Of a stretch of 64,000 nucleotides of DNA, positions 13,120-18,888 are shown in pieces (position 1 is the first letter of the stretch; each line of letters opens with the position of its first letter). The notes below the pieces were generated by a model. The model was not told the origin of the DNA. It ran no database searches and worked only from the letters and a program-made list of their open reading frames with translations. The stretch is taken from positions 107,350 through 171,349 of the forward strand of contig JBAYHU010000002.1 in the NCBI GenBank assembly GCA_041665945.1, read 5' to 3'. Both the position numbers and the translations under genes were made by a program. This DNA comes from Candidatus Micrarchaeia archaeon. Lineage in GTDB: Archaea; Micrarchaeota; Micrarchaeia; Anstonellales; Anstonellaceae.

Positions 13120-13734
13120 TTAACGCCAGAGTATCTTCGCAGGCGTGCCGTTCCTTTGCGCCACTGCATCAGTTATTGTCCTGTAATAGGGCTTGGGCGA
13201 GTCGTTGCCGAATGAATTGGTGAACCTGCGCCCGCCTGTTGCCTCGCCCCACGTCTTGAAGCGGACGTTCGGGATTTCAGGCGCGTCCCTGCCGGGCTTG
13301 TTTTCGCTCCGCCAGTTGGAATTGGTTTTTGCCATTCCGGGGACATCGTGCCATGACTTGTATGTGTCGGCAGAGTGCTTTTTCGCGTCCGGCTTTTCAA
13401 CCCATGAGAGGGTTTTGGCTTTCTCCTGCGGTTTGGGCGAAGCTTCGATGAATATCGGCTCGGAGTTTTCCGCCGCTTCTGCTTCAAGGCGGGCGAGTTT
13501 CTCGACTGCGGCATTGTGCTCGGCAATGCGCGCCGCCTTGGCGTGGTTGCGCAGTATGTCGCCCACGCAGCCGGTGAATGAAACCGCGAGCATCCCGACC
13601 AGAAAGAGAATGGAATTTTCCGAAATCTCGCCGTTTTTCGTGAAGGGGGAGCAGCCAGTCTGGAGGAGTGAAGAACCCATTGCAAGGGGAAGAAGGGCGC
13701 TTGTTTTCGCTTTTGCCAGCAGGGAAGTCGTCAT
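13120..13734 (-). CDS. hypothetical membrane-anchored or lipoprotein-like protein
   Basis: N-terminal LLPLAMGSSLLQTGC lipobox-like signal and a second hydrophobic segment. The C-terminal part is Lys/Pro-rich. Confidence 0.5.
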   Translation of the reverse strand: MTTSLLAKAKTSALLPLAMGSSLLQTGCSPFTKNGEISENSILFLVGMLAVSFTGCVGDILRNHAKAARIAEHNAAVEKLARLEAEAAENSEPIFIEASPKPQEKAKTLSWVEKPDAKKHSADTYKSWHDVPGMAKTNSNWRSENKPGRDAPEIPNVRFKTWGEATGGRRFTNSFGNDSPKPYYRTITDAVAQRNGTPAKILWR

Positions 13735-13907
13735 GATATACTATTAATAGCGACATATTTATATATATGCCCGACGTCGGGATGCCGGGATTCGCGGCGC
13801 CATGCACCGGCACCACCGGCACGTTGCCCCTTGTCCCGCTTTATATATGAAAAATAGCGCAAGCAGTGAGCCGGGGAAGCGCCCTGGCGGAAAAAAAGGT
13901 GGCGACC

Positions 13908-14099
13908 ATGAAAATCAACATAGACGAACTGACCTACGAGGAAATCAAGGAAGTGGTGGACAGGCTGCGCGAGATGAAGATTGAAACCATCATACGGAAA
14001 TCCGGCCCCAGCGTCATTCTCCAGACCGAGCAGGGGCCTGTGCAGATTGCCGAAGATGAGGCGACCGAAATATACGGCGTGCCCGCCATGATGTTCTGA
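13908..14099 (+). CDS. small hypothetical protein (63 aa)
   Basis: ATG 13908 preceded by a GGTGG SD (the track ORF starts upstream at 13866). MKINIDELTYEEIKEVVDRLREMKIE... has coding-like codon bias. There are divergent TATA boxes at about 13765 and 13840. Confidence 0.4.
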   Translation: MKINIDELTYEEIKEVVDRLREMKIETIIRKSGPSVILQTEQGPVQIAEDEATEIYGVPAMMF

Positions 14100-14180
14100 C
14101 TTGTATGCCCTTTTAGTGTAAGTTTAATAATAGTTTAGTGCTATAAAAATGCACAGATTGGCTTGCATGGGGGCGAAAAG

Positions 14181-14426
14181 ATGGATGTGAACCTGCATCT
14201 TGAAGGAGAAACTGCAAATTACATAGAGGCGCTCGTGAAAAGGGGGCTTGCCGCCAACAAGACGGAGGCAATACGGCTCAGCATAGTGCGCTCCATGGAA
14301 AGGGAGCCGGAGGGCGAGGCAGGGAGATTCAGCCAGGCAATAATCGAGAAGGCGTGGAACGGGCCGAAAGACAAGGAAGCCGGAAATTTCTACAGGCAGA
14401 GGTATTTGCGTGGCAAAAAGGCGTGA
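14181..14426 (+). CDS. ribbon-helix-helix (CopG/RHH) antitoxin
   Basis: MDVNLHLEGETANYIEALVKRGLAANKTEAIRLSI has the beta-strand plus two helices of RHH antitoxins. TATA ctataaaaa lies about 30 nt upstream. The 3' end overlaps the toxin gene by 17 nt. Confidence 0.65.
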   Translation: MDVNLHLEGETANYIEALVKRGLAANKTEAIRLSIVRSMEREPEGEAGRFSQAIIEKAWNGPKDKEAGNFYRQRYLRGKKA

Positions 14427-14736
14427 AGTCGTCCTCGCGGAAATCTTCTTTTCCGATGCCCCGGACAGCAAAACCCGCCCTTGCATCGTCCTTTCGGACG
14501 GAGCGTATTGCGATGGCAAGTATTCCGTTGTCGCCATGATAACGAGCGAATGCGACGAGCATTGCCTGCCGATAAGCGAAAATGACGCCGGTTGCCGATT
14601 TTATGGGGGAAGCGGAGTGCGGTTCAACTGCATGGCAAGGATAGGGGCTGCGCAGCTCGAGCGGCGCATAGGGAAGGTTGCGCCGGAATTCTATTCGCGG
14701 CTCGTCGGCAGGATAAACGGAATCATCGGAAAATGA
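14410..14736 (+). CDS. mazF: PemK/MazF-family endoribonuclease toxin
   Basis: RREVVLAEIFFSDAPDSKTRPCIVLSD...VVAMITSE...RIGKVAPEFYSRLVGRINGIIG matches the MazF/PemK fold signature. It overlaps the upstream RHH gene. Confidence 0.7.
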   Translation: MAKRREVVLAEIFFSDAPDSKTRPCIVLSDGAYCDGKYSVVAMITSECDEHCLPISENDAGCRFYGGSGVRFNCMARIGAAQLERRIGKVAPEFYSRLVGRINGIIGK

Positions 14737-14783
14737 ACAGAGGGAAAAGCAAGCAATAAAAGCCCAGAGCAGGAAGTTTTTGC

Positions 14784-15374
14784 ATGGCAGAGGAAAACAG
14801 GATTGAAGAGGATGCTCCTGAAGAGGAGCGAGAGGAGAAAGAAGATGGAAAGCGGACAATCGCCGCGAGCCGCAGCGAGGGGCGAGCTGTGCCCGAAGGG
14901 CACACAATAGCATCAAGGGGCATTCCCTCCAAGGATTCGCTTTACCTCCCTCCGCACAATTCCCCGGAGCTTCGCGCATTCCAGGACGGGAATGAGGGGA
15001 TAACGCGGAACATCTGGAACCTTGAGGAGATAGCGAACTTTGTTTTCCCCAAGAAATACCAGGCGAAATACAACGAGATAGCCGTGGCGTTCCTCAAGCT
15101 CGCGCTTGACAGGGGCACGCTGTCCGGCGACGACATAGGGCATTTCGTTTCGCAGAACGGGATATCCAAGGCGACATTCTACAACAGGGTGCTGCCTCGC
15201 CTCAAGAGAATCGGGATGCTGAAGGTGGAGAGGCAGACCATAATCGCGCTTGAGAGCAAGAGGAAATTCCGCCCCATGACAATCACGCTTTCGAAAACCT
15301 TCGGGAACTACCTGATGAAGATAGGCGACTCGTGGCTCGCGCTTGTGGATGACGCGCGCAGCAAGAAGAAATAG
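14784..15374 (+). CDS. hypothetical protein with acidic N-terminus and winged-helix-like C-terminal half (putative regulator)
   Basis: Glu-rich N-terminus, then NEIAVAFLKLALDRGTLSGDDIGHFVSQNGISKATFYNRVLPRLKRIGMLK, which is HTH-like. Leaderless promoter spacing. Confidence 0.5.
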   Translation: MAEENRIEEDAPEEEREEKEDGKRTIAASRSEGRAVPEGHTIASRGIPSKDSLYLPPHNSPELRAFQDGNEGITRNIWNLEEIANFVFPKKYQAKYNEIAVAFLKLALDRGTLSGDDIGHFVSQNGISKATFYNRVLPRLKRIGMLKVERQTIIALESKRKFRPMTITLSKTFGNYLMKIGDSWLALVDDARSKKK

Positions 15375-15429
15375 ACGGGCGCTCTAGCACAGCTATCCAT
15401 TTTAAACCATTCTGCATAGATTGAATCTC

Positions 15430-16137
15430 ATGCTCGTCGCAGACAAAACCGGGGGGAAACAGGGCGCCATATTCACAACGCAGGTCCTCGGGGAAAATAA
15501 ACTCTCTCTAATCAAGACTGCCGACGATACACGAAGGAAACGCTTTATGTCCGATGGCAGTTCCAGATTGACATCAGGGACAGTGCCATACTGGGCCAAT
15601 TGCACGTCACCCCATGGGCGAGCCAAAAGAACCATAGAGCCCCTTGTGGACAAAATTTACGGCGGGGAAATACTCGAGATAGGATGTTCCACGGGATTGT
15701 CGACCAGAGAAATCGCCACTCTTTTTCCGGATTCGAAGATAACCGCAATAGACAACCGGGAGGATGCAATCGAAGTCGCTATGCGCCAAAACCTATCGCT
15801 TGTGAAAAACAGGGGGGTTGAATTTGTGCTTGCAGACGGATACTTCCTTGCGGAGTGGTTTGGGAACAGGCTCTTTGGCACGATAATGGCGATGAACAAC
15901 ATCCTCTTCAACTTAGATTCGTTTCCGGAAAATGACCTTGCCTGCGTCATGCATAATCTTGTGAGGGGACTGAAAACCGGCGGCTCGTTGCTTTTTTCGA
16001 AGGAAGAGTTCAGCGTGCTATTTCGAAAGGAGGAACGCCGCCTGATGCTCCTTAGCACCACTGCCAAGCTTTCCTCAGATTATAAGAGCATAAACAGGCT
16101 GATGGAAGTCGCAAACAAACCGGCTATTCGTCCTTGA
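15430..16137 (+). CDS. class I SAM-dependent methyltransferase
   Basis: Motif I EILEIGCSTG, motif II ITAIDNRED, plus FVLADG and LKTGGSLLF. ATG 15430 sits at leaderless distance from TATA attttaaacc (the track ORF starts at a TTG, 15421). Confidence 0.65.
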   Translation: MLVADKTGGKQGAIFTTQVLGENKLSLIKTADDTRRKRFMSDGSSRLTSGTVPYWANCTSPHGRAKRTIEPLVDKIYGGEILEIGCSTGLSTREIATLFPDSKITAIDNREDAIEVAMRQNLSLVKNRGVEFVLADGYFLAEWFGNRLFGTIMAMNNILFNLDSFPENDLACVMHNLVRGLKTGGSLLFSKEEFSVLFRKEERRLMLLSTTAKLSSDYKSINRLMEVANKPAIRP

Positions 16138-16951
16138 TGTCGTAGAACACTTCGGCTTCGGGATAGACCTTGATTCCCACGCCTTCCACGAACTCGAAGG
16201 GGCAGAGCCTGTCCGAGAATTTCGCACCCCTCATTTTCAGCACTTCAAGCGCGCGGTAGCGGCTTCCCTGCAATCGCGGGTGGTGCATTACAATCACGCC
16301 GTCCGAGAGGTATTCCATTCCTGCGGTGGCGCGGTCGGCGTTGGTGGGCGTGCCTTCAGCCGAAAGAAGCGCGGTGCATTCCCATTTCCGCAGAATGTCG
16401 AACAGGAGAATCTCAGCCTCGCGCGCCTTGTATTGCGAGTCGAAAAGGACGGTGTAGGAAGTGAGCGAGTCTATTGCGAGGCGCTTTGCCCCAAGCGAGG
16501 TTATGGTGTCAAGTATGAGCCCGCCGCCCTCGTCAACGAGCTTTTTTATCTCGTGCGGGCGGTAGCTTATCTGGGTGAAAAGCCCCTGCTTTTCAAGCGC
16601 GTTGAAGTCGAATCCGAAGCTTGCCATGTGCCTGACTACCGAATCGTGGGACTCTTCGAATGACAGAAGCACGCCCGGCTCGCCGTTTTCAACCGCGCCG
16701 TTGTTCAGGAACTGCGCGAGGAAAGTGGTCTTGCCGCAGCCCGCCCCGCCCATGACAAGGGTGGTGCTCGCGACCTCGAAGCCGCCCCCGAGAAGGGAGT
16801 CCAGCCCGGGGATTCCCGATGGGACGCGCCTGTCCTGGGGCGCCCTTGATTGCACCGGAAATGGCGCCCTGCTGTTGAATGAACTGCCCGGCTGCGCCCT
16901 TTTTATGGGCCGCACGGTCGGCTTCAGTCTTGGCTCCTCCTCATCCGGCAT
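16124..16951 (-). CDS. KaiC-like RecA-superfamily ATPase (intact Walker A)
   Basis: GIPGLDSLLGGGFEVASTTLVMGGAGCGKTTFLAQFL (Walker A) and LILDTITSL (Walker B-like). The single KaiC/RadA-like domain starts at ATG 16949-16951; the longer track ORF carries a low-complexity N-terminal extension. Confidence 0.7.
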   Translation of the reverse strand: MPDEEEPRLKPTVRPIKRAQPGSSFNSRAPFPVQSRAPQDRRVPSGIPGLDSLLGGGFEVASTTLVMGGAGCGKTTFLAQFLNNGAVENGEPGVLLSFEESHDSVVRHMASFGFDFNALEKQGLFTQISYRPHEIKKLVDEGGGLILDTITSLGAKRLAIDSLTSYTVLFDSQYKAREAEILLFDILRKWECTALLSAEGTPTNADRATAGMEYLSDGVIVMHHPRLQGSRYRALEVLKMRGAKFSDRLCPFEFVEGVGIKVYPEAEVFYDIKDE

Positions 16952-17039
16952 GTTTTCCCTCGTAGAGAGTAACCCAAGAACTTTTATAAACATGCGAGCC
17001 GCTATTTCTCGTCGAAAAGAACGATTCTGCGTGATTGCC

Positions 17040-17741
17040 ATGCCATCCGACCTGCTAATGCCCACCGGGATAAAAACCCTTGACAAGATGCTGGGCGGAG
17101 GGCTGCCTGTCGCCGGAAACGTCCTTCTGCTTGGCGACCCGCTGTGCGGGAAAAAGCCCCTGATGATGCAGTTCATCTACGAGGGGCTGCAGATGAACAT
17201 CCCCGGCATATTCGTGCTCACCGATTTCGGCTATCTCGAGTGGAAGGAGATGATGGACAGCTCCAAGTGGGACGTGTCGGAATACGAGAAAAACGGGCTT
17301 TTGCAGATAATCGACTGCTATTCCAAGACGTTCGACGCGTCGCTGCAGGACGAGGGGATTGTTGCCTACACAAGCGGCGGGGCGGACCTGTCGGAAATCT
17401 CCATGCAGCTCACGGGATTGCAGGGGCAGATAATGCAGATTGCCGACAACCACCGGCTCAGCTTCCATTCGCTCTCCTCGCTTCTTGAGACCAACCCGCC
17501 GGAGTCTGTTTACCGCTTCCTGCAATTCATCACCGGCAAGTTCCGCCGCGCAGGCGCGACCGCCATGTACGCCCTTGAAAAGGGCATGCACGACGAGAAG
17601 CAGGAGAAGATGGTGGAGCACCTCATGGACTGCGTGATAGAATTCCACGAGGATGAGGTGCGCGTGCGCGGGCTTCCGGGAGTGCCGACCGCATGGCACA
17701 AGTACGAGATGGGCGAGAAGGGGCTGTATATCGCGCCGTAA
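17040..17741 (+). CDS. KaiC-like ATPase paralog with degenerate Walker A (likely non-catalytic partner)
   Basis: GIKTLDKMLGGGLPVAGNVLLLGDPLCGKKPLMMQF has the KaiC fold signature, but GK is followed by K rather than S/T. ATG 17040 lies divergent to the other KaiC-like gene; the track ORF starts far upstream inside that gene. Confidence 0.6.
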   Translation: MPSDLLMPTGIKTLDKMLGGGLPVAGNVLLLGDPLCGKKPLMMQFIYEGLQMNIPGIFVLTDFGYLEWKEMMDSSKWDVSEYEKNGLLQIIDCYSKTFDASLQDEGIVAYTSGGADLSEISMQLTGLQGQIMQIADNHRLSFHSLSSLLETNPPESVYRFLQFITGKFRRAGATAMYALEKGMHDEKQEKMVEHLMDCVIEFHEDEVRVRGLPGVPTAWHKYEMGEKGLYIAP

Positions 17742-17759
17742 TGGCGGGCGGTTGTTTTC

Positions 17760-18020
17760 ATGGCGGATTATCTTGGCATCGTCGGGCTTGTTCTCATACT
17801 TGCGGGATGGACGATAGAGCTTATCAACGCAATCAGGGCGGGAAAATCGCAGGTGCCGCTTTCGTTTGCCGTGCTTTACGCAGCTGGAAGCGGGCTTCTT
17901 GCGTGGCACAGCCTTGAAATAGGAGACATGGTCTTTCTTGTGCTCAACGCGGCAGCGACGCTTGTTGCTGTTGTGAACATCGTTTTCTGCCTCTTTGCAA
18001 AGGGGAAGAAAAAGAGGTGA
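17760..18020 (+). CDS. small membrane protein (86 aa, 2-3 TM helices)
   Basis: Hydrophobic helices and a KGKKKR tail. Sits immediately downstream of the degenerate KaiC-like gene and is followed by a hairpin. Confidence 0.5.
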   Translation: MADYLGIVGLVLILAGWTIELINAIRAGKSQVPLSFAVLYAAGSGLLAWHSLEIGDMVFLVLNAAATLVAVVNIVFCLFAKGKKKR

Positions 18021-18046
18021 GGGCGGGCGTTTCGCCCCCTGCCCTC
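18019..18046 (+). terminator. GC-rich two-part stem-loop immediately after the stop codon
   Basis: GAGGGCGGGCGtttCGCCCCctGCCCTC. Confidence 0.4.
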
Positions 18047-18243
18047 GACGCAGGTTCCCTTACAAACCTATATAAGCATTTCTTTTCTTATAGCAAGCAC
18101 TTCTGTTCTTCTATCTCATAAAACTGTTATTTGAAGTAGGAGACAATTTTTTCAAAAACAGGAAGACCTGACAGTTTAGGCGACAGGAATTTCAGGGATA
18201 ATCGCGGCGGAATCAGATTCCGGCGCGGCAACGAGGGATTTCT

Positions 18244-18888
18244 ATGGCGACTCCAGAACGCAATGATGCCAAGGACAAGACGCTTTCCACCGGAACGACT
18301 ACCGTGGGGCTTGTCTGCAGCGACGGCATAGTGATGGCGTCCGACCGCAGGGCGACCATGGGATTCTTCATCGCCAACAAGGACATCCAGAAGGTTTACC
18401 AGATTGACGACAACATTTCCATGACGATTGCGGGGGGCGTGGGCGACGCTCAGGCGCTTATCCGCATGATGCAAGCTGAAACTTCGCTTTACAAGTTCAA
18501 GCACGGCAGGATGATTTCCGTGAAGGCGGCGGCATCACTTTTGTCGAACCTGCTCCACAACTACCGCTTCTACCCCTTCTACGTCCAGCTGATAATCGGA
18601 GGGTATGACGGCGAAAAGGCGGAAATATACAGCCTCGACGCCATGGGCGGGCTGACCAGCGAGAAATACGTCTCCACCGGCTCGGGCTCACCGATTGCGT
18701 ACGGGCTTCTTGAGGAGCTTTACAAGGACGGCGGCTCGGTCAAGGACAACCTCCGCGCGGCTGGCAAGGCGATTGCCGCGGCCATGAAGCGCGACGCGGC
18801 GACCGGCGAGCACGTGGATTTGATATCGATTACGAAAACAGGATTCAAGAGATACGAGAGGGCAGAAGTGGAAAAGATGCTCCAGTAG
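18244..18888 (+). CDS. psmB: proteasome subunit beta
   Basis: Propeptide then TTTVGL (catalytic Thr1 context) and GGVGDAQAL. Length and pattern match the archaeal 20S beta subunit. Confidence 0.9.
   Translation: MATPERNDAKDKTLSTGTTTVGLVCSDGIVMASDRRATMGFFIANKDIQKVYQIDDNISMTIAGGVGDAQALIRMMQAETSLYKFKHGRMISVKAAASLLSNLLHNYRFYPFYVQLIIGGYDGEKAEIYSLDAMGGLTSEKYVSTGSGSPIAYGLLEELYKDGGSVKDNLRAAGKAIAAAMKRDAATGEHVDLISITKTGFKRYERAEVEKMLQ

Follow-up and report, generated by a model that had tools for sequence, protein, structure and literature searches.

Predicted active and inactive KaiC paralogs on either side of a common promoter region in Micrarchaeota

To our knowledge, KaiC-like ATPases are thought to be a main signaling currency of the archaea, and almost none of them has a defined partner or output. 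A stretch of 64,000 nucleotides (nt) from Candidatus Micrarchaeia archaeon (Micrarchaeota, Anstonellales, Anstonellaceae; assembly GCA_041665945.1, contig JBAYHU010000002.1, positions 107,350 to 171,349 of the forward strand), here called the window, contains two divergently oriented genes for proteins of this kind, designated A and B, and raises the question of why a KaiC-like protein with a complete set of catalytic motifs should be encoded beside one in which these motifs are replaced, and of what such a pair might control. A preliminary description of the window had proposed a signaling or defense module made up of the pair and a small membrane protein. The interpretation that we favor, if only slightly, is that A and B are co-expressed KaiC paralogs acting jointly as a nucleotide-dependent regulatory switch in Micrarchaeota, probably coupled to a third conserved gene, D. 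The revised parts list consists of A, B, the shared promoter, and D, and excludes the membrane protein, C. The features concerned are as follows, in coordinates of the window.

16124..16951, minus strand: gene A, single-domain KaiC-family ATPase of 275 amino acids, assigned from PF06745, motifs, and family N termini
16952..17039, no strand: divergent promoter region common to A and B, 88 base pairs (bp), recognized from comparable spacers and the same core motif in relatives
16977..16995, plus strand: core promoter element AGAACTTTTATAAACATGC, with a palindromic TATA box at 16983-16990 and conserved, orientation-specific flanks
17040..17741, plus strand: gene B, KaiC-fold pseudo-ATPase of 233 amino acids, of the inactivated KaiC (iKaiC) or DUF7504 type, assigned from PF06745, PF24336, motifs, and an AlphaFold2 (AF2) model
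14784..15374, plus strand: gene D, 196 amino acids, with an acidic, disordered N-terminal tail and a very conserved core, probably a winged helix, convergent with A in 29/35 loci

For the comparison with relatives, 75 loci were retrieved and all open reading frames (ORFs) in them were scored with profiles of A and B. Counts out of 35 refer to the distinct Micrarchaeota A/B loci (about 35, window included) in which B is at least 45% identical to B of the window.

Catalytic motifs and fold of the two proteins

The match to the Pfam KaiC family (PF06745) spans the A protein from end to end (173.7 bits, cutoff 26.6, E 5e-51), and the best solved relative of A in a PDB profile search is KaiC 8zn5, a designed KaiC variant (E 3e-62). 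Its sequence contains GGAGCGKTT as Walker A, SFEES with the Glu pair, AIDSLT with Walker B, and LKMRG with the trans-acting K-x-R-G, four catalytic motifs that are all conserved in 111 family members. With these motifs A has the signature of an active KaiC/RecA-type ATPase and is predicted to be catalytic. The region of the phospho-site is like that of a CI domain, having EY where CII has ST. The N-terminal tail, of about 40 residues, is basic and Pro-rich; in the A family it is a variable, low-complexity segment with one to six copies of a basic Pro motif (PVPRK or PxPRK-like; VRPIKRA in the window), and these repeats stretch some orthologs to 345-473 amino acids (P0133, P0141, and P0144). 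In the gene calls of the source contig, A begins with the ATG at 16993, which would give a protein of 289 amino acids. This start is probably wrong, because the conserved TATA box would then fall inside the coding sequence; the family N termini and the promoter favor 16951.

None of the narrower assignments that were tried for A reached its cutoff. The NCBIfam models of circadian KaiC score 145.6 bits (NF006799, cutoff 408) and 91.9 bits (TIGR02655, cutoff 546) on this single-domain protein, ArlH/FlaH (NF052589) scores 37.1 bits against 215, RadA 22.7 bits against 259-361, RadB 20 bits against 172-278, and KaiC_arch_3 (TIGR03880) 136.2 bits against 249.45. A scan of 13500-18500 with Rfam gave only a sub-threshold match, which lies inside the coding sequence of A; it is NiCo-AnGGAG riboswitch-like (16830-16924, minus strand, 25 bits against a gathering score of 64.5) and almost certainly due to chance.

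The B protein, which is 100% identical to a protein from a metagenome-assembled genome of Candidatus Micrarchaeia, also matches PF06745 (89.1 bits) and, in addition, DUF7504 (PF24336; 54.5 bits, cutoff 27), which with its degenerate P-loop places it among the iKaiC domains. In the P-loop, GDPLCGKKP, the Thr of Walker A is replaced by Lys; LTDF has Asp-Phe in place of the catalytic Glu pair, and in FHSLSS a His takes the place of the Walker B Asp. Judged by these motifs, B does not have the signature of an active KaiC/RecA-type ATPase. The ORFs, coordinates, and Walker A sequences of the divergent pair given in the preliminary description were found as reported, and its view of both genes as KaiC-like, one of them catalytically degenerate, is borne out by the Pfam scores and by the replacement of three motifs in B.

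The altered motifs of B are themselves strongly conserved, with the consensus G[DE]P[LM]CGKKP, LTD[FY], and FHSLSS. The variant P-loop G-x-P-[LM]-C-G-K-K-[PIL] is found in about 85 of 91 B homologs, a figure that is also given for all three replaced motifs, and in an alignment of 24 sequences reaching down to 28% identity the residues K38, D62, D92, H143, S144, and S146 are invariant. This pattern marks B as a conserved pseudo-enzyme and not a decaying copy. A profile search of 1.84 billion cluster representatives, in which relatives were kept at E <= 1e-30, extends it to 238 representatives of B-like proteins, with the superfamily signature GxxxxGK[EKD], (L/T)TD, SxST, and E.GMH.E; since these 238 relatives share the degenerate signature, the degeneracy of the P-loop is ancient in this branch.

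The AF2 model of B is a complete single KaiC-like domain (predicted local distance difference test score 93.3). Its closest solved fold is that of hexameric PH0284 (2dr3; template modeling (TM) score 0.80), followed by KaiC CI, PH0186, and SSO2452. The Gly-Lys of the P-loop survives in B, which makes binding of phosphate or nucleotide without hydrolysis plausible. The Arg that precedes Gly in the VRVRG segment of B, equated here with the finger in the K-x-R-G of KaiC, is retained by 32 of the 34 B proteins linked to an A; in most B-like proteins without an A partner this position is Gln, Ser, or Leu. A remodeled metal site composed of Cys36, Cys93, His143, and Asp62/92 was considered for B and rejected: Cys36 is not special, the P-loop of A having the same Cys (GCGK), and Asp92 is shared with KaiC. 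Assignment of B to known families fared no better than that of A. The ArlH model (NF052589) scores 34.1 bits against 215 and thermo_KaiC_1, the family of PH0284 (TIGR03877), 74.9 bits against 307.25, and the RadA and RadB models of NCBIfam give no match to B; profile searches, which the preliminary description had recommended for placing the two proteins, thus distinguish B from ArlH, RadA, and RadB, and the refuting outcome named there, in which B would turn out to be RadB or ArlH, did not occur.

The two proteins are 35% identical over 106 residues in BLASTP, and hhalign aligns them with a probability of 99.2%; on these alignments A and B are paralogs.

The divergent arrangement, its promoter, and gene D

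The pairing seen in the window recurs throughout the relatives. In all 35 of the 35 loci an A-family gene (A profile 370-440 bits) lies directly upstream of B and divergent from it, and the possibility raised in the preliminary description, that the two genes are syntenic in no relative, can be dismissed. Pairwise comparison over 26 loci gives median identities of 0.58 (B) and 0.59 (A), and the distance matrices of A and B correlate with r = 0.84. These values place B under the same constraint as A, with matched evolutionary rates. The pair is conserved vertically and at a fixed position, adjoined by genes for the proteasome beta subunit, aCPSF1, an M50 peptidase, and ribosomal proteins; on the source contig, which is 239 kb long, ribosomal proteins L1, L10, and P1 are encoded upstream of the module, and the proteasome beta subunit, aCPSF1, AspRS, and Alba downstream. 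The A/B stretch belongs to the core genome, a housekeeping setting and not a defense island. The surroundings of the pair have been reshuffled among relatives while the A/B arrangement has stayed.

The 88-bp region between the two start codons, with its TATA-like ttttataaa, had been proposed as a common promoter region, and the comparison with relatives agrees with this. The spacers of relatives carry the same core motif and measure about 47-145 bp in most loci, a few being longer. The sequence ttttataaa is present in the A/B spacer, and the core within it, TTTATAAA (16983-16990), is conserved in relatives; it is a perfect palindrome that occurs twice in the window, and the longer element AGAACTTTTATAAACATGC is unique there. 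In 14 relatives the form GAACNTTTATAAANNTGC is found exactly once in each locus, invariably within the A/B spacer and with its orientation unchanged. The distance from the TATA box to an in-frame ATG of A is 22-24 nt in 17 of the 22 loci that have an exact TATA box, which puts the center of the box about 26 nt upstream of this ATG. About 26 nt is the canonical distance from TATA box to transcription start in archaea, and the spacing therefore implies that the mRNA of A is leaderless; in the window the distance is 32 nt and the implied leader about 9 nt. A GTGA(T) motif resembling a Shine-Dalgarno sequence usually precedes the ATG of B, which is 41-67 nt from the box in 18 of the 22 loci. The palindromic nature of the element, its conservation, and its spacing to both start codons suggest that one symmetric TATA box very probably drives both genes, and the arrangement fits a leaderless or short-leader transcript for A and a Shine-Dalgarno-led transcript for B. 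A scan for sigma-70 promoters and intrinsic terminators is uninformative in an archaeon.

Gene D was identified by clustering of all neighboring ORFs. It is convergent with A in 29/35 of the A/B loci, and of the 6 loci from which it is missing 3 lie on truncated contigs. Most relatives have no gene between D and A, whose stop codons are separated by anything from a few nucleotides to a few tens. At a median pairwise identity of 0.67, D is better conserved than either A or B; 653 homologs were found, the 120 matches listed being 60-94% identical, and the long invariant blocks include SKATFYNRVLPRL and FGNY..KIGDSWL. Its presence in 29/35 loci marks D as a conserved third partner of the A/B pair and not an accessory gene. 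The preliminary description had called the D product a winged helix-turn-helix (wHTH) protein. The D protein of the window itself has no Pfam match and no family assignment, and support for the description comes from its homologs: weak matches to the TrmB wHTH domain are found in 13 of 33 (best E 0.0074), matches to an ArnR1-like winged-helix domain in 7 of 33, and the only PDB profile match of D is to the wHTH protein 2pg4 (E 1.2). Because of these matches, D is probably a DNA-binding winged-helix protein. The basic, PxPRK-like tail of A and the acidic tail of D are complementary in charge, an observation that is offered as speculation. In 15/35 loci (for example L001 and L002) a gene for an M50 (site-2) protease lies directly upstream of D on the same strand, and beyond it lies an HTH_3/HVO_2718_N gene; the window does not have this M50-D arrangement.

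Neighboring genes, wider relatives, and the competing explanations

The remaining features of the neighborhood in the window are these.

17760..18020, plus strand: gene C, membrane protein of 86 amino acids, LAB_N-like, with about three transmembrane segments, recognized by its LAB_N match
18019..18046, plus strand: GC-rich hairpin after C, 11 pairs with a bulge (-25.5 kcal/mol, z = -1.76)
15421..16137, plus strand: class I S-adenosylmethionine (SAM) methyltransferase between D and A (Methyltransf_25, E 6e-10)
14163-14736, plus strand: pair of ORFs resembling a toxin-antitoxin (TA) module, an RHH-like ORF of 87 amino acids and an overlapping PemK/MazF-like ORF of 108 amino acids with a GTG start

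The small membrane protein was correctly recognized as a gene in the preliminary description, which had also counted it as a component of the module. Its match to LAB_N (PF07578) is marginal (27.6 bits, cutoff 26.7), and its homologs in relatives share the weak match; it lies 3' of B in only 8/35 loci and is a facultative neighbor, not a core part. The hairpin noted behind it exists but is statistically modest, and a T-rich tract lies 3' of it (about 18082-18092). Of the proposed accessory patch, comprising D, an RHH-MazF pair, and a methyltransferase, the latter two stand as local insertions, being absent from the loci of relatives, but D does not belong there. The methyltransferase, whose identification as SAM-dependent is upheld, shares 14 nt with the 3' end of A; it is missing between D and A in most relatives and is a lineage-specific insertion, not part of the module. 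The overlapping RHH-like and PemK/MazF-like ORFs are likewise present, but the latter scores below the Pfam cutoff for PemK (20.7 bits against 23.1) and the gene caller on the source contig gives shorter genes here (81 and 66 amino acids); the pair is possibly a degenerate TA module.

More distant relatives of B indicate the company that such domains keep. Many of them are long proteins in which the B-like domain is C-terminal, behind a Zn-ribbon/HhH, MEDS, tandem iKaiC, or STAND-NTPase plus HD-CE arrangement. One of these, P0396 (1257 amino acids), carries its B-like iKaiC domain at the C terminus after HD-CE and an nSTAND1 NTPase, an architecture typical of conflict or signaling systems. In Thermoplasmatota a conserved cluster (L049-L065 and L072) consists of a Roadblock/LC7 gene (about 137 amino acids), a fusion of iKaiC with a small GTPase (about 390 amino acids), and, last, a B-like iKaiC gene (about 240 amino acids; for example L054, 4419-6726). 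The fusion joins a KaiC-like domain without Walker A to a small GTPase of Arf/Ras type, and genes for the T2SSF platform protein of type IV pili and archaella are often found upstream of the cluster. In one locus of Micrarchaeia (L066, 4772-8091) an iKaiC-GTPase fusion, a B-like gene, a Roadblock/LC7 gene, and an A-like active KaiC gene form a single co-directional cluster, which ties the GTPase/Roadblock system to the combination of A with B. The associations of B-like domains with GTPase, Roadblock, MEDS, and STAND proteins point to signaling. In four loci that lack A (L005-L008), distant B-like genes (31-38% identity) are divergent from a gene for an Mre11-like phosphoesterase (for example L005, 4623-6798), which scores 88.9 bits over its full length with the Mre11_Sulfo model, far under the cutoff of 500. 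Behind the B-like genes of these loci lie HisRS, an MJ0538-family gene, and a further active KaiC-like gene; the pair of MJ0538 and KaiC genes is also found in L003.

In the switch that we propose, A would be the sole catalytic subunit, hydrolyzing ATP as does the CI domain of KaiC, which is an ATPase. B has the full ring-forming KaiC fold and would bind nucleotide or phosphate at most, without hydrolysis, because the Mg-coordinating Thr, the Glu pair, and the Walker B Asp have been lost. A heteromeric ring, such as the preliminary description had in mind, is plausible, and we infer joint assembly of the two proteins, either as one mixed ring or as stacked rings, where B would modulate A or serve as an adaptor and may donate its retained Arg as an Arg finger to the active site of A. 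The retention of this Arg in A-linked B proteins supports assembly at a ring interface, although its equivalence to the finger is uncertain; the strict synteny and the matched evolutionary rates lend indirect support as well. The single palindromic TATA box would tie the expression of the two genes together. D would be the most likely output or target of the switch, for which the KaiC-like protein CirA and the transcription factor CsmR provide a precedent (PMC13286277).

Several points weigh against this interpretation. Divergent adjacency with a shared promoter is proof of co-regulation and not of complex formation. A-like KaiC genes with no B neighbor are present in Diapherotrites and in another DPANN genome, so that A is presumably able to function alone; by the same observation the A/B pairing appears to be specific to Micrarchaeota. 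A natural fusion of A with B was sought among the homologs and none was found, the long forms of A being those with N-terminal low-complexity extensions. The equivalence of the B Arg with an Arg finger is ambiguous, as hhalign sets the gap in the hairpin differently, and the assignment of D as a wHTH protein depends on sub-threshold matches.

A and B could be co-regulated and otherwise independent, for example A as a homohexamer and B as a stand-alone adaptor or scaffold, with the synteny reflecting only a shared promoter in a compact genome; the A-like genes without B in other DPANN, the B-like genes without A in Thermoplasmatota and some Micrarchaeota, and the missing fusions would all be accommodated. 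We nevertheless consider this quite unlikely, in view of an arrangement kept in every locus down to 45% identity of B amid reshuffled surroundings, the matched evolutionary rates of A and B, and the retention of the putative Arg finger only in B proteins linked to A. A second alternative, also unlikely but less so, takes A and B to be mediators of recombination or repair, an active and inactive heterodimer of the aRadC or Rad55-Rad57 type that helps RadA, with D as a DNA-binding accessory. In Sulfolobus the KaiC-like proteins RadC1 and RadC2 have DNA-damage phenotypes, B is named a 'RAD55 family ATPase' by NCBI, both proteins belong to the RecA superfamily, and the KaiC-like RadA paralog SSO2452 is a detectable structural relative. 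However, the match of A to KaiC (E 3e-62) is far stronger than that to SSO2452 (1e-17) or to the RadA/RadB models (about 20 bits against 259-361), and no radA, rad50, herA, or nurA was seen near the pair in the A/B loci with called genes that were examined. The Mre11-like phosphoesterase divergent from B-like genes in L005-L008, which would suit a role in repair, belongs to a subgroup without A, and the wider B-like family associates instead with GTPase, Roadblock, and STAND signaling parts.

The proposal of an antiviral defense or conflict module, which would take in the TA-like pair and the methyltransferase, is very improbable and is largely refuted by distribution. It can draw on the fusion of a B-like domain to a STAND NTPase plus HD-CE in P0396, on the TA-like pair nearby, and on a weak PADLOC match of the methyltransferase to mad2 (39 bits), which probably arises through the common SAM-binding fold. 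PADLOC, in contrast, gives no match for B, C, or D and only a marginal mad8 match for A (15.9 bits), and PHROGs, with which A and B were not scanned, gives none for C, D, or two small upstream ORFs. The vertical conservation of the pair at a fixed housekeeping position is the opposite of what is seen in patchy defense islands, and neither the methyltransferase nor the TA-like genes are found in the loci of relatives. The defense role suggested in the preliminary description is thus not sustained.

The switch formed by A and B remains the preferred interpretation. A more specific form of it can be stated tentatively, although we think it unlikely in detail: A, B, and D would constitute a minimal, lineage-defining KaiC circuit of Micrarchaeota in which a heteromeric ring (for example A3B3) hydrolyzes ATP at every second site, with B sensing nucleotide and supplying an Arg finger, and controls D, perhaps a global regulator in these reduced genomes, through its disordered tail. 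Such a ring, if real, would be without precedent as a heterohexameric KaiC and would give prokaryotes a counterpart to the Elp456 and Rad51-paralog rings. The locus offers a clean minimal case in any event: throughout a whole class of ultra-small DPANN archaea a predicted active paralog stays linked to a predicted dead one, and the shared bidirectional promoter with its single TATA box and an exceptionally conserved, putative DNA-binding neighbor complete the set. Concrete predictions follow that can be tested, both on the regulation of a KaiC-type motor by a pseudo-ATPase paralog and on the targets of such switches.

Comparison with known KaiC-like and RecA-fold systems

In the comparison with cyanobacterial KaiC, A aligns over its full length with both CI and CII, has about 40% identity to the CI domain of its best match, 8zn5, and shares Walker A, the Glu pair, Walker B, and K-x-R-G. 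Cyanobacterial KaiC differs in having two domains where A has one, and the NCBIfam KaiC models score only 92-146 bits with A against cutoffs of 408-546. No kaiA or kaiB gene is present among the called genes neighboring A on the source contig, and the comparison of score, domain count, and neighbors with those of circadian KaiC gave no evidence of a clock. For B the best match in both sequence and fold is PH0284/UPF0273 of Pyrococcus horikoshii (2dr3), a hexameric, single-domain protein that aligns over the full length (E 1e-14, TM score 0.80) but, unlike B, has an intact GxxGxGKT P-loop. ArlH (FlaH), the ATP-binding and autophosphorylating partner of the archaellum ATPase ArlI, is also a single-domain KaiC-like protein and acts through nucleotide-dependent oligomerization and interaction, a mode of action comparable with that proposed here for A and B; the ArlH model nevertheless scores only 37 (A) and 34 bits (B) against 215, and the window has no arl genes on either side of the pair.

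The eukaryotic Elp4/5/6 and Rad51-paralog complexes (Rad55-Rad57) are hetero-oligomers built from paralogs of the RecA/KaiC fold whose nucleotide sites are degenerate, and a combination of A with B would be formally similar to them. The likeness to Elp4 is weak: PAXNEB/Elp4 (PF05625) scores 31.9 bits with the whole B protein against a cutoff of 28, with no stretch that passes alone, the best being 27 N-terminal residues (4-30). In this comparison no link of A/B to Elp3 or to recombination genes was seen.

Archaeal KaiC-like ATPases and iKaiC domains were reportedly proposed as hubs of signal transduction by Makarova, Galperin, and Koonin in 2017 (mBio). The comparison that bears most directly on D is with CirA of Haloferax volcanii, a KaiC-like protein proposed to modulate the transcription factor CsmR through the unstructured tail of CsmR (PMC13286277); D too has a disordered tail beside a probable wHTH domain. 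CirA and CsmR differ from the present system in coming from another lineage, in having no inactive paralog as partner, and in that their genes are not described as adjacent, and the mechanism of CirA is itself unproven.

PMC5847659, which cites the 2017 proposal, presents inactivated KaiC domains as a class in archaeal signaling, with KaiC and iKaiC as signaling hubs. The resemblance of the present locus to these systems extends to a single-domain KaiC ATPase encoded with a motif-inactivated homolog, to B-like domains fused to or located beside small GTPases, Roadblock, MEDS, and STAND NTPases, and to a probable transcription-factor partner, which here is D. Literature searches found no paper on the A/B/D triad with its shared palindromic TATA box, and the triad appears to be restricted to Micrarchaeota. 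The A/B/D locus is an archaeal KaiC/iKaiC system and not a new category; it is well delimited, and what sets it apart from the other hub systems is the combination of an active KaiC, an iKaiC of the GKKP/FHS type, and D with that shared element.

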